This document shows positions 1,450-13,800 of a stretch of 64,000 nucleotides of DNA, piece after piece. The first letter of the stretch is position 1, and each line of letters begins with the position of its first letter. The notes under the pieces are model-generated. The model did no database searches. It was given only the letters and a program-made list of their open reading frames with translations, and was not told the DNA's origin. Where the stretch lies: the NCBI GenBank assembly GCA_017499595.2, contig CM039008.1:1798001-1862000 (forward strand), in the 5' to 3' direction. The DNA comes from Psilocybe cubensis. Its lineage: Eukaryota. The position numbers were made by a program, and so were the translations under genes.

Positions 1450-3636
1450 ATCTGCGTCTTATTCTTACCTTGTGCTCTCGCTTTAACTGTCGTTCTGGCT
1501 TTGGCTGTTAGGCTCGGTATAATAGGTTAGGTTAGAGTCGTGCCAGACCGCAGACCGCAGATCAACCACCATTGCATTGGCATTGGCAGCGCGACGGCTC
1601 CCAAGTCCGCTGTGCGCTCCTTGAAAACGATCCTTGTTGTCGTCCCGCTGGCGATTCACGAGGGCCTACTTCTACTTGATCTTGGCTGATGACGACTGAG
1701 GTACTGAGGCCCGGGATTATGTGTGTAATTTGTGCTGCAGCTTGTTGTGTAGCGTTTGGTTGATTCTATATACGCTCTACGATGTTCTGTGTTCTGTGTT
1801 CTGAACGGAAAATCGTGTCATACAGGCCACACTCATCTACATCTACATTCCCAGTCGCATGCGAAGCACCCCTCACCCCTCACACCTCTTCCCTTCTCCC
1901 CCTTTGGCGCATATGCATACATGCATATAAATATAAATATACATACACACATGAATGTATTGCATAGATGGTAGGGTGGCGAGGCACAAGGCACAAGGTG
2001 CATGAGAGCATGAGATGACGGTAACATTTTGTAAGAGTTATGACTTATACATATACTTTCTCGGAGCTTGAAGAGTCCGACTCGAGTTGGCCATGATGAG
2101 TCGAAAAGTTCGAGATTCTAAGCTCTAGCTCTATGTCTTGTCTTGGGTGTCAAAGCCCCTATTTTCAATTTCATCCGCAGCGCGCCGCGACGCGACGCGT
2201 TTTAATGCAAGTAGGCCGCGTGATGTACTTAAGTCTTATGATCAAGGGTGTGACATCATATTTGTTGATGCTTTTTCGTGTTGTCACGCCTAGCATCCAC
2301 CCCCTGTTCTTTTTGCGATCAACTTTGTGAACTTTTGCTACCTTATCATGAATCATCCAACTGTCGATTCAGCCTCGTTAGGTCTCAATTTGCACTGCAT
2401 ACCACGCACGAGGATGACGGCGCCAGAGTCGGCTCAAAGCTACTTCGGCGGCCACTTCGAAGTTCGAACATGGTCATGGCCCAAGTCTCCCGGCAAGGTT
2501 ATGATATAGGGATACTCCCCCCATCTCTCTGATATGTAGTGCCAGTGAACGGTGGGAGAGGAAGATACCGAACATTGGAGAATCCACAGTCACTCCTCGC
2601 TATTATCAATATCATGCGAGTTTACCTTAACAGTTTTGACTCAATCCGACTTAAATCTCATGTTGAAGCTCCTCAGGTTATTTGCAAATACAAGTACAAC
2701 TGTCCACAGCCCTACCACTTATACACCGCTTTCTCTGTTCCTCGGCCTCTGGTAATAGTGTCTTTCCGAAGTTTTACCTACACACCACTTGAATCTTGTC
2801 CATGCATTCCGAGATTTCAGTGTTACTTACCAGTGCCAAAATATAGATTCGCTCTCCCCGGCTCGCTGTTCCCGCCCCCGGCACGTCGCTGAAATCACAA
2901 CGTGCACTCAAATAACACTCCTTCGCTGCTTCACGGCCCACGGGCCGCTGCGCATCGCTGAGCTGCTGTTCAGGCGAATGTATGCGCCATGGTAGGCATT
3001 TTGAGCGTTGATGAAAGATTGAGAGTCTCCAACTTCGAGGGTTCCTTTCATATGGGGTGTTATCATGTGTCGAGGTAAAAGATTCGAAGAAGGGGCGTTT
3101 TGCTCGTTTTCGTTTTTCGTTTTTCGTTCTTCGTTCTTGGTTCTTCTTTTTTTGCTGCTGAACGTGATGCTTATTCGAGGGGTATAAAGTGGTGTACTTT
3201 GCACCATACCCAGGTTCGCGTTCCTGCCTTGTCCACGGAAGAAAAGACGCCTCACGACGTTGACCTACAAATTATGGGTATCAAAATCTTAGAGGGTTGT
3301 TGGCGGTTGTTATTAGCGTCGTTGATATTTACATCCGTCGCGTCTCAGATCTCTGCAAGGAATCGTGTATCTGCTCCTTTATTCCTTGCGATATCCTCTG
3401 CTGGTCACCTCCACCGCGCTATTTCAGATTCTGCGAACGCTACTGCGCGCATTCAAGCTAGGAAGCTGACACCAGATGTTCAATGGGATCAATACAGTCT
3501 TTTCGTAAAAGGCCAAAGAGTGTTCATATAGTAAGCCACACCAACCATCTTTCATCTCCTTCCATCACACTCAGTACCACATCATTCACATCGCCTTCGC
3601 CTTAGCTCAGGGGAATTCCACACGTACCGTCTCCCC

Positions 3637-3689
3637 TATGGAAAGCCAGACTGATCTGCTCAATGTTTGGCTCATGCCGCGTGATGGCC
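3637..3689 (+). repeat. Left terminal inverted repeat (53 bp)
   Basis: TATGGAAAGCCAGACTGATCTGCTCAATGTTTGGCTCATGCCGCGTGATGGCC, the exact reverse complement of 10791-10843. Confidence 0.97.
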
Positions 3690-4053
3690 TTTGTAAATTA
3701 AACAATAAATAAATAAATAGTCATTTTGCTTTATAAATCAAGGTGTATCACGATGTCACCGTGACTGATTAAATATTTGTTCGGTACTGAACGTGTAGAG
3801 CACAACTCGCTGCAGAGTACTTTCAGTATTGTTCACATACCTTCATATTTTTGCTCCTATAAATTACTTTTAATAATTAAGAACCAAACCTCCCGCCCTA
3901 TGGAAACCCATAGAACTTTAGAACATTGATATCAATTTGAAATGTCACGACAGGAGTAGGTGAATAGGAGTCCATTGAACCGATGGACGACTTGGACACT
4001 TTTATTCCTTAACCATTTCCACGATTATCCTGCTTTATTCACCATTTTCTATT

Positions 4054-10634: not shown

Positions 10635-10790
10635 TGATTTTAATACAAAAAGAATAGAAGAGACGGCGCTGAGTAGGGATTTTCAATTGTCGCCCTATCA
10701 CGATGAGAAACAAGGTAGGAAAATATATTTCATTCAGAATAGGAGTCTACGGATAACACAAGCATGTTTTAGCTAGACGTTAGCAGGACC

Positions 10791-10843
10791 GGCCATCACG
10801 CGGCATGAGCCAAACATTGAGCAGATCAGTCTGGCTTTCCATA
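10791..10843 (-). repeat. Right terminal inverted repeat (53 bp)
   Basis: Exact reverse complement of 3637-3689, followed by the TSD CTCCCC. Confidence 0.97.
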
Positions 10844-13800
10844 CTCCCCGTCCCATCCCTCTGGCCGGATATCCTGCAGAAGATCAAAGCCGCCGGGTTC
10901 AACGCTATAAGCGTGTACACGCACATGGCGCAGATCAATCCCTCGCGAGGCGTGGTGGATTTCAGCGGACACCGTGCCCTCCAACCACTGTTCGACGCTG
11001 CAAAAGCGAGTGGGCTCTGGATCATCCTCCGTCCGGGTAAGCCATCCTGGATTTATACAAGACCCCGGGTTGAAGCATGTTGAAAGTGGGCTGAAATGGT
11101 TTTTTTTTTTGTTTTTTTTCAGGACCGGTACGTTTACTATGTTGTTAATACCATGCTTCGAAATTGAAGCACGAGTTGTTGATGTTGTTCTTCGGTACTT
11201 CAAACCTCAATTCTGATTCTAATCCGGTGTGCAGTATATCAATGCCGAGACGTCTGCGGGAGGCATTGCGCATTGGATCACGACGGAAATTGCTGGTCAA
11301 CCCCGCTCGAACGATACAGACTACCGTGCAGCGTGGCAAGATTACATCGCTGGTATAATCAAAGTCACAGCGCCGAACCAGATTTCGTCCGGGGGACCAG
11401 TCATAGGTACGCTTTTCCGCCTGCTTTCACGTTGAAATATCGAATAATTAGCTTCGTGACTCATTTTTAACCAGCGATCCAAGTCGGTACGTTATTGTTT
11501 ATACAAGAGATTTTTTGTTTTTTTTTTGAAAGCCATCTTCGTCAACTTGATATGTGTATGTTGCACAGACAACGAATTCTCGCAGGCTCCTGCATTCCAT
11601 GCTGCGTATTTTGCTGAACTCGAAGAGGTGTATCATAACTCGCCAATTGACGTCCCTCTCACCTACAATGACCCCGGAATGGGATCTAGCTTTATAAATG
11701 GAACTGTATGTCCCTCCCCCCTTTTGCTTTTCTCTGCCTTGGAAGGTAAATGTTAATTTTGTTTTGCTTTTAGGGTGCAGTTGACCTTTACGGGTGAGTG
11801 TCCGGTCATGTTTACTACTTTGCAGTTGTTTAATTTAATTATGATCCTATGAAGCTTTGATGAATACCCTCAACGATACGATTGTACCCATCAAACATGG
11901 AATCCGGCTCCGACTAACTATTACTCGTACCATATGCAGGTCAATCCTGCAAATCCGCAATTTATACCTGGTATTTTTGTTTTTTTTTCTCTTTTGTCGG
12001 TTTTGATGAATGTTAAAAGTTGATCTACACAGAATTTCAAAGCGGTGCGGGTGACTCATGGGGTCTTACATCTCCAGGTACTTCTCTTATTGAAAATCGT
12101 ATGCAAAGTCCGACGTAGCGTTTTATTTTAGGCTACGATGGCTGCAGGCTCTTAACAGGACCTGACTTCTTGTCAGTGTTTAATCAGGCATTGTGGGCAA
12201 GTAACGCCAAGATGATAAATTTTTATATGTTTTATGGGTATGAAAAGGCTTTCATTCTCTTGTCATTTGCTTATCTTTTTAGAGGAACTTCTTGGGGAGC
12301 TATTCCATATCCCGGCATTTACACCTCTTACGATTATGGAGCAACTGTGCGTTTGCACTCTACAATGTCTTTCTTGTACGCTCACAATTATTCTTGCATT
12401 GCAGATCACTGAATCAAGGCAGTTGACGACAAAATTTGATGAAATGAAACGACAGGGTCTCTTCCTACGTAGCACCCCAGATTTCTACAAAACAGATTGG
12501 ATAGCAGATACCAATAGTGGCATATCTGTTTCAAATAATCCTGCAGCGTATGTTACAGAGCTGAGGAATCCAGATACTCAATCAGGGTACTTCATTGTCC
12601 GTCAAGCCAACTCGTCTTCTCTGTGCGTTGTTTGATTCTTGTCTTGGAAATGAGCCAACTCAATATTCAATTATAGCGAAACCATTACATTGAAATTAAA
12701 TGTCACAACATCGGCTGGTGCCCTCCAAATCCCGCTCCAAAGTCCTGACATTACGATTGGAGGACGTCAATCAAAAGTTATAAATACGGATTATAAATTC
12801 GGATCTGCTTCAAAGGCTTTATACTCGACTGCTCAAGTACTTTTTGCAGGGATAATTGACGGCAGAGATATTCTCTTCCTTCATGGTGATACGAACCAGA
12901 CACATGAAATTGCGCTCGCTCTTACTGGCAACCCCAGCAAGCTGAAGGCGTCTCCTTTCGTAGAGCTATCCACCAAGGTGCCTGGTGTGCCTAGGGATAC
13001 CACTGTCATCACTTTCGGCCCCGGTATAACTGACCTCATTACCGTCTGGGACTCGGATACGCAACTGATTCTGTTTGCTGATTCCAACACGGCGGCAACA
13101 TTTTGGGCACCGGTGATCCCTGGGAATGCTGCCAATCCATTCAAAGCCTATTGGGGCATAGGAACCAATGAATCTGTGCTCGTTGGAGGTCCTTCCCTTG
13201 TTCGTGACGCCAGCATCTCTGGCACAACTTTGGCTCTGAGCGGCGATCTTGAGACTTCCGTTCAAATCCGTGTGGTCGCTCCTCGAAAAATCAAGACAAT
13301 AACGTGGAATGGTGCTAGAGTTGCGCTAGATCCTTCTTCTGCGGTTGCATCGACCGGCGGGCTCAGTGGCCAGTTGAAGCTCAGAACACCCCTGTCGGAC
13401 ATCAAGATACCTCAATTGACAGAATGGAAATTCCAAGATAGCTTACCAGAGATTCAGAAGGATTTCGATGACGATTCGTGGACTATTGCGAATCATACGA
13501 CAACAAATATTCCATATCCACCTTACTACAACGACGGCCGGATACTGTACGGTTGCGACTATGGATTGTAAGTGATCTTTTATGTGCTCTTCAGTAATCT
13601 GTAATGATATCTCCGATAGCTGTGAAAATGTTGTCCTATGGAGAGGGCACTTCAAGGCAACTGGACAAGAAAAGAGTCTGAATTTAACAGTCAACGGGGG
13701 GCAAAGTACGCATCACTATATCTCAACTCCAATTTTTCAGGAAACTGATTACCCTTTCAGATTTCGCTGCGAGTGTCTGGTTAAATGATGTGTTCTTGAA

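Follow-up and report, generated by a model that had tools for sequence, protein, structure and literature searches.

An IS3EU-like DNA transposon with an alpha-kinase gene at a strain-variable site in Psilocybe cubensis

Results and discussion

Two converging genes between perfect inverted ends

We analysed a stretch of 64,000 nucleotides (nt) of the Psilocybe cubensis genome (GenBank assembly GCA_017499595.2, contig CM039008.1, positions 1,798,001 to 1,862,000 of the forward strand), hereafter called the window. At positions 3637-10843 the window contains a DNA transposon of 7,207 bp with an alpha-kinase gene and a transposase gene that converge on a non-coding centre. The features of the element and of its insertion site are listed below in window coordinates, with the strand where one applies.

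3631-3636: left copy of the target-site duplication (TSD), CTCCCC; at the empty-site joint these 6 letters fit both sides
3637-3689, plus strand: left terminal inverted repeat (TIR), 53 nt, starting with TATGG, 100 % complementary to 10791-10843
4054-6811, plus strand: gene model of 726 amino acids (aa) with zinc finger, middle domain and alpha-kinase domain, converging on the transposase gene
6480-6522, plus strand: 43-nt micro-exon of the kinase gene, encoding GRTLLTDPQIITHP, reached via the GC-AG intron 6417-6479
6812-8906: non-coding centre between the converging genes, 2,095 nt, GC content 0.56, with a core of 0.64 at 7440-8720
8907-10634, minus strand: DDE transposase gene, 463 aa in 7 exons, gene model identical to the P. 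cubensis protein P0050, with D146, D206 and E247
10791-10843, minus strand: right TIR, 53 nt, ending in CCATA, 100 % complementary to the left TIR
10844-10849: right copy of the TSD, CTCCCC, directly outside the right TIR
10844-11035, plus strand: interrupted host exon of a GH35 beta-galactosidase gene (Pfam Glyco_hydro_35), the upstream part of which ends at 3636

Perfect 53-bp TIRs, a 6-bp TSD, an uninterrupted spliced DDE transposase on the minus strand and a full spliced zinc-finger and alpha-kinase gene on the plus strand converging on it had all been predicted from the letters of the window, and each of them holds: the TIRs are complementary at every position, CTCCCC stands on both sides, and both reading frames run through without a stop. 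A 34-nt end probe matches at the two TIRs only, with 0 matches expected from 100 shuffles. The coding parts of the element have a GC content of 0.39-0.41, compared to 0.46 for the whole window and the higher values of the centre.

Just to the right of the element, Pfam Glyco_hydro_35 matches with an E-value of 6.4e-15 over profile positions 23-83. The host frame across the site reads GEFHTYRLP to the left of the element and (LP)VPSLWPDILQKIKAAGFN to its right, and the host exon becomes continuous once one copy of the TSD is removed. The element thus lies within a coding exon of a gene for a GH35 beta-galactosidase and disrupts it. The identical ends together with the perfect duplication indicate that the insertion is a recent event.

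The insertion is polymorphic between strains

Four public runs (X1, X5, X7 and X11) were compared with window positions 3300-11200. In three of the four, position 3630 is joined directly to 10844; the joint omits 7,213 nt, has 6 letters that fit both sides and leaves a single copy of CTCCCC. The empty site is carried by one contig in X5, with flanks that show no other differences, by one contig in X7, and by 27 raw reads with 17 start places in X11. The remaining run, X1, has the filled site, with contigs bridging both junctions, and the empty-site joint was not found in it; X1 is maybe the sample behind the window assembly and hence not an independent confirmation. The insertion is therefore strain-specific, the GH35 exon being uninterrupted in other strains, and the prediction of a recently active element is borne out as far as a recent move is concerned.

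In all four runs the element is also found next to other flanks, with loose ends at 3636-3638 and 10843-10845. The word depth of X1 contigs is 78-101 on the element compared to 24 on the left flank, and the raw-read depth of X11 on the element is about twice that of the flank. Contig depth being no copy number, we read these depths only as a few copies of the element.

It is conceivable that an inverted repeat surrounds two ordinary neighbouring host genes by chance and that nothing here is mobile. The exact empty site with one CTCCCC in three of four runs refutes this and establishes a true insertion; the other flanks seen in reads and contigs at both ends argue against a chance repeat as well, as do four such gene pairs on four contigs of the reference annotation. 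We consider the probability of a chance repeat negligible. The empty sites also bear on the idea that the kinase is an addiction or toxin-like module harming cells that lose the element. Strains with an empty site exist, though other copies are kept there, and a second small gene of the antidote type was not found in the element, making this explanation very improbable.

As a separate observation, the differences between copies in X11 (window positions 3300-11200) include 53 C>T and 49 G>A changes compared to 30 T>C and 21 A>G. This excess may be a trace of methylation-linked mutation, or of mutation resembling repeat-induced point mutation (RIP), in some copies.

The transposase has an integrase-like core

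The seven exons of the transposase lie on the minus strand at 10634-10610, 10549-10435, 10377-10201, 10143-9869, 9812-9560, 9506-9338 and 9284-8907, separated by six introns of 53-60 nt that are all GT-AG. Its protein differs at 0 positions from P0050 and at 4-10 from the three other members of the P. cubensis cluster. The Pfam integrase core rva_4 scores 27.9 bits (cut-off 26) and is also found in 23 of 26 relatives. A weak match to NCBIfam IS481 was obtained as well (E 1.7e-5; 24.5 bits, compared to a family cut-off of 224). Single exons gave no Pfam match, and a sequence search of the PDB with the transposase returned a chance-level match only (E 0.6).

Among the 26 relatives, which share 46-61 % identity, D146 and D206 are invariant and E247 is nearly so. 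The structure model is confident (pLDDT 85, pTM 0.83) and places D146 in strand 142-148, D206 directly after strand 202-205 and E247 in helix 244-256, positions that we take to be the catalytic sites of an RNase-H-like fold, located on its strands one and four and on the helix after the latter. Among solved structures, the closest are TnsB, IstA and the lentiviral and foamy-virus integrases, with E-values of about 1e-4.

The N-terminal 130 residues form two helical bundles in the model. No conserved His/Cys set was found before D146 among the invariant columns of the 26 relatives, hence no N-terminal HHCC zinc motif, while Pfam HTH_21 is present in 3 of them. The Clr5 label suggested earlier for this N-terminus finds no Pfam support: Clr5 matches 0 of the 26 relatives at E <= 0.01 and appears only in the UniRef names of four.

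Two side observations concern this gene and its relatives. At the 56-nt intron 9813-9868, other copies in X5, X7 and X11 have ATTG in place of 48 nt, leaving 12 nt, which would be an in-frame, near-complete intron loss. In Hohenbuehelia grisea, the 1100-aa protein P0027 joins an rva_4 core to a weak GATA-like finger further on and is probably the product of a gene prediction that fused a tandem transposase-kinase pair.

The kinase gene encodes a zinc finger, a conserved middle domain and an alpha-kinase domain

The kinase model consists of 11 exons (4054-4270, 4322-4390, 4451-4513, 4562-4908, 4967-5326, 5381-5446, 5499-5610, 5676-6045, 6112-6416, 6480-6522 and 6583-6811) and 10 introns of 48-66 nt, nine of them GT-AG and one, with its GC donor after exon 6112-6416, GC-AG. 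The acceptor of intron 2 is a tandem TAGTAG (4448-4453), of which both cuts are in frame and lie one residue apart. The predicted protein agrees with P0044 at 708 of 709 aligned residues and with P0045 at 712 of 713.

The 43-nt micro-exon makes a difference to how the gene is recognized. The 709-aa reference models of P. cubensis, such as P0044, skip it and with it the catalytic motif TDPQI, and score 28-29 bits with Pfam Alpha_kinase (PF02816). The 729-aa protein P0046 includes it and its score doubles to 58.1 bits, compared to a cut-off of 21.3. The window exon 6113-6415 alone gives 23.8 bits.

Alpha-kinases are characterized by a set of catalytic and zinc-site motifs, namely a lysine, DxQG, TDPQ, a glycine-rich loop and HxCxxxC. 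The corresponding stretches of the predicted protein are CIKQIF (489-494), SDFQG (633-637), TDPQI (643-647), GDGN (659-662) and HDCNKFC (672-678), and P0046 aligns to eEF2K over DxQG (as DIQG), TDPQI, GDGN and HxCNxxC. Judged from the predicted protein, the catalytic motifs are intact, and the columns of the catalytic region are kept in 26 kinase relatives of 26-46 % identity. The structure model has a mean pLDDT of 70.7, with the kinase part mostly above 85. The top match of the modelled kinase domain is TRPM7 (1ia9; E 9.3e-11, TM-score by target 0.56-0.65), and eEF2K, MHCK A and ALPK1 are also among the fold matches.

Preceding the kinase domain is a four-cysteine finger (C22, C25, C50, C53) that is kept in the consensus of the 26 relatives. 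The middle domain (about 205-340) is well folded in the model, with G183, Y184, H188 and D292 invariant. No family could be assigned to it; the search yielded weak leads to beta-grasp or ubiquitin-like folds (ranks 45-50, E 0.01-0.04, TM-score about 0.5).

Kinase and transposase travel together

Among the proteins annotated in P. cubensis, 8 belong to the kinase cluster and 4 to the transposase cluster, and four kinase/transposase neighbour pairs are found on four contigs (locus tags 0010715/16, 0005068/69, 0009712/14 and 0011675/76). The pairing recurs in other mushroom-forming species. In Amanita muscaria the kinase JOM56_004150 lies near the transposase _004152, and in Tephrocybe rancida DXG01_007591 stands beside _007592. 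Relatives of both proteins share a 6,044-bp contig in Hygrophoropsis aurantiaca and a 994,365-bp contig in Pholiota molesta, and those of Favolaschia claudopus (2973644 and 2973640) lie on contigs of equal size; equal contig sizes were taken to mean the same contig. Within the transposase list, which holds 40 clusters only, no pair was found for Arthromyces, Lyophyllum, Hohenbuehelia or Pholiota conissans, and 0 of 10 more distant kinase relatives gave a further same-contig pair with that list, which says little.

Metagenome contigs were scanned with the transposase alignment. Of the 262 confirmed loci 80 were taken, and the kinase was sought in them by local tblastn. We found it in 43 of the 80, in convergent (14), tandem (10) or divergent (19) order. 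Where the transposase is flanked by 2.5 kb or more on each side, the fraction is 8 of 9 loci, and with 4 kb or more on each side it is 3 of 4. TAYGG-type ends sought around both genes gave 7 candidate complete elements, three of which have TATGG ends and matching 6-bp duplications: L002 (CGAGTG), L030 (GGCTGG) and L060 (GGAAAG). The first 15 or so nt of the left TIR in the window resemble the ends of L060, L030, L002 and L040; in L060 the end sequence is TATGGAAAGCCGGAC compared to TATGGAAAGCCAGAC in the window element, the first 15 nt being alike.

The two genes thus travel together in many Agaricomycete and metagenome copies, and the original prediction that the kinase is a built-in component rather than a one-off capture is supported by the P. 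cubensis pairs, the other species and the metagenome loci alike. On a descriptive level, gene orders vary among relatives of the element (L004, L005, L013, L031, L032, L036, L044, L050, L070 and L077, plus the 19 loci with the kinase upstream). In the divergent relatives the two genes lie up to 2.7 kb apart, and the spacers may hold further cargo.

An alternative explanation is that the element captured an alpha-kinase gene of the host, which rides along as a passenger and has no part in the spread of the element. Fungal transposons passively pick up enzyme genes, TET/JBP being an example (PMC12730594), and the variable gene order would suit a passenger. Against it stands the breadth of the pairing, which spans Agaricales, Boletales and many metagenome families and, according to PMC12730594, also rusts and Tuber. 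Across six pairs of species the identities of kinase and transposase are moreover correlated (Mantel r = 0.72, a value reached by 13 of 720 permutations), which argues weakly in the same direction since shared host ancestry could produce the same correlation.

The kinase is under purifying selection

If the kinase were a passenger, it might be expected to evolve neutrally among copies. In pairs of close metagenome copies the ratio of non-synonymous to synonymous substitution rates (dN/dS) of the kinase is 0.24-0.76 (7 pairs), compared to 0.47-0.99 for the transposase, and the kinase has the lower value in 6 of the 7 pairs with both values. In a pool of four independent families, each represented by one pair, we counted 24 synonymous and 29 non-synonymous changes in the kinase (binomial p = 0.0006-0.005 relative to neutral) and 27 and 60 in the transposase (p = 0.08-0.30).

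The differences seen in the public runs form a small sample, the 40 listed among 326 not having been picked by us. Ten of them fall in the coding sequence of the kinase, and 6 of these 10 are silent. In its exon 1 all four differences are silent, compared to nine changes in the adjoining 212 nt upstream.

Thus the kinase evolves non-neutrally among copies, as anticipated, and is at least as constrained as the transposase. This purifying selection argues against a passenger, and so does the conservation of the N-terminal finger and the middle domain alongside the kinase domain. Taken together, these results render the passenger explanation improbable.

A hairpin array fills the centre of the element

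In addition to the features listed above, the centre holds the following.

7121-7220: small imperfect inverted repeat with 38-nt arms, 76 % complementary; its core 7151-7183 also occurs in other genome contexts
7454-8125: tandem array of units of about 50 nt, each a 20-24-nt palindrome of the ACGAGCAGCTTAAGCTGCTCGT type followed by a C-rich tract
8380-8415 and 8494-8518: two more perfect hairpins, with stems of 14 bp and 10 bp respectively

At 7454-8024 the array has a period of 50 and 11.3 copies. Over 6812-8906 we found 11 perfect hairpins, compared to 0-3 in each of 25 same-size pieces of the window, and the single-strand fold of the array is far more stable than that of 20 shuffles (z = -10.9). 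Rfam gave 0 matches over 3600-10900 at E <= 0.1. None of 8 open frames of the centre reached a Pfam cut-off, the best being DUF6083 with 17.8 bits compared to 27.1; with no Pfam family in these frames, the centre holds no TET/JBP gene.

The hairpin counts and the strong predicted fold suggest that the array might be a working part of the element, either a platform for binding the transposase or the zinc finger or a site of replication or recombination. Perfect 22-nt palindromes are typical sites of dimeric DNA-binding proteins, which would fit such a role. The comparison between copies speaks against it. Convergent relatives have AT-rich spacers of 73-804 nt in this place, and a count of the motif GAGCAGCTTA over 433 kb of related loci gave 0. 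Coverage by X5, X7 and X11 drops sharply between 7524 and 8315, and their reads diverge from the window at about 7183-7211 and at 8351; other copies thus carry other sequence in the centre. The number of units also varies, a joint in X11 skipping 164 nt, and neither unit length, 50 or 59 nt, is divisible by three. Finally, all 20 window occurrences of ACGAGCAGC lie in the centre and none in the element ends. We therefore give little credence to a working array. A resemblance of the palindrome to the TIRs had also been considered and was dropped on the same count.

The palindromic array between the genes is present as originally described, and its standing as a conserved part of the unit is not upheld, being absent in relatives and variable between copies. 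We infer that the array is a lineage-specific, unstable filler, a hairpin minisatellite in a permissive central slot.

The small inverted repeat at 7121-7220 is a separate matter. It is found once in the window, and depth is raised in the bin 6996-7259 (371 in X5, compared to about 100). Many reads leave the repeat at 7151 and 7183 into one other, palindromic context, and the repeat gives the impression of a fragment that a different repeat family elsewhere in the genome also contains.

Relation to IS3EU elements and other known systems

IS3EU elements of rust fungi are described as having 6-bp TSDs, inverted ends of more than 30 bp and TAYGG..CCRTA termini (Kojima 2025, PMC12730594). The 45 IS3EU families in Repbase have TA..TA ends and usually 6-bp duplications (PMC10045372), and according to a 2021 paper (PMC8232023) the IS3EU elements that have been described code for two proteins, Repbase having been the only place of publication for the superfamily. 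The 6-bp TSD, the TATGG..CCATA TIRs of more than 30 bp, the DDE transposase and the opposite-strand kinase of the window element all match this definition, so that its recognition as IS3EU-like stands. We conclude that it is very probably an autonomous cut-and-paste DNA transposon of the IS3EU superfamily, an assignment made by published defining features.

The original prediction knew of no description of this architecture. That part does not stand: PMC12730594 reports oppositely oriented transposase and alpha-kinase genes in rust IS3EU elements, a statement made there for families with TET, and the pairing in Tuber as well. It was the only relevant paper returned by a full-text literature search for alpha-kinase with transposase, transposon or IS3EU, and a search for P. 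cubensis with DNA transposons returned nothing on this element. As far as the published text goes, the architecture is thus in print, briefly and without functional work, and the P. cubensis element is a new, apparently active member of the IS3EU superfamily.

The closest known systems are accordingly the TET-bearing IS3EU elements of rusts and Tuber, with which it shares the 6-bp TSD, TAYGG..CCRTA ends of more than 30 bp, a DDD/E transposase and an oppositely oriented alpha-kinase (PMC12730594). It differs in its agaric host and in its central slot, where the rust elements are described with a TET/JBP gene between the two genes and the window element has the hairpin array instead. Its metagenome relatives are often tandem or divergent, orders that the IS3EU part of PMC12730594 does not mention. 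Styx/REP9 of Zymoseptoria (PMC8232023, PMC10853768) resembles it in an IS3EU-related transposase, inverted ends, 6-bp duplications, recent activity and extra genes, but is described with four genes, none of them named there as a kinase. GingerRoot of clubmoss and bacterial IS481/IS3 (PMC10045372) share 6-bp duplications and a related DDE core, GingerRoot also TA..TA ends, whereas bacterial IS481/IS3 encode no kinase and the IS481 score stays far below its cut-off.

On the kinase side, eEF2K, the TRPM7 kinase domain and myosin heavy chain kinase A share the fold and the catalytic-loop, glycine-rich and zinc-site motifs; unlike them, the element kinase has an N-terminal four-cysteine finger and a conserved middle domain, and is borne by a transposon. 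Kyakuja/Dileera/Zisupton, Plavaka and further fungal DNA transposons with TET/JBP (PMC12730594) likewise have an enzyme gene beside the transposase that presumably benefits the element. Their transposase class and enzyme are different, and the purpose proposed there is escape from methylation.

A possible role for the kinase in transposition

We hypothesize that transposition proceeds as follows. The transposase would combine two N-terminal helical DNA-binding modules with the RNase-H-like core (D146, D206, E247), bind the 53-nt ends, excise the element and join it to a target with a 6-bp stagger. The kinase would be an accessory gene retained by selection on the element itself. Our best guess, offered tentatively, is that the zinc finger brings the kinase to DNA or chromatin, where it may phosphorylate the transposase complex or a host chromatin or repair factor and so permit or time transposition. 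Alternatively the kinase may act against host silencing or in translation control, which is doubtful in itself and nearly as likely as a role at the transposase complex or chromatin.

In its widest form our hypothesis is that IS3EU transposition throughout fungi requires the alpha-kinase as a catalytically active partner, acting on the transposase complex or on host chromatin, and that copies of the element explain the alpha-kinase expansions in rusts, where the family is highly expanded (PMC4469406), and in mushrooms. We consider this possible, at somewhat less than even chances. Several observations weigh against our overall reading of the element. The kinase is missing from 37 of the 80 metagenome loci, mostly short contigs, and also from two loci with long flanks, L078 (flanks of over 5 kb each) and L009 (10 kb downstream), which speak for a passenger. 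Among the candidate complete elements, the duplication of L040 (CTATAG) is itself a palindrome and hence ambiguous, and L013, L031 and L049 have no matching duplication. The splice models of kinase and transposase, including the GC-AG intron, are predictions from annotation and homology, and transposition is inferred from the presence and absence of the insertion.

Conclusion

IS3EU is among the least studied transposon superfamilies, and the published text that we found gives its alpha-kinase a single sentence. To this our analysis adds that kinase and transposase are commonly paired in mushroom-forming fungi and that the pair is found in three gene orders. An intact, young and strain-variable copy in a culturable fungus provides a concrete system in which to study the function of a transposon-borne kinase. 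If the kinase is indeed an obligatory partner, the movement of a DNA transposon would depend on its own protein kinase.

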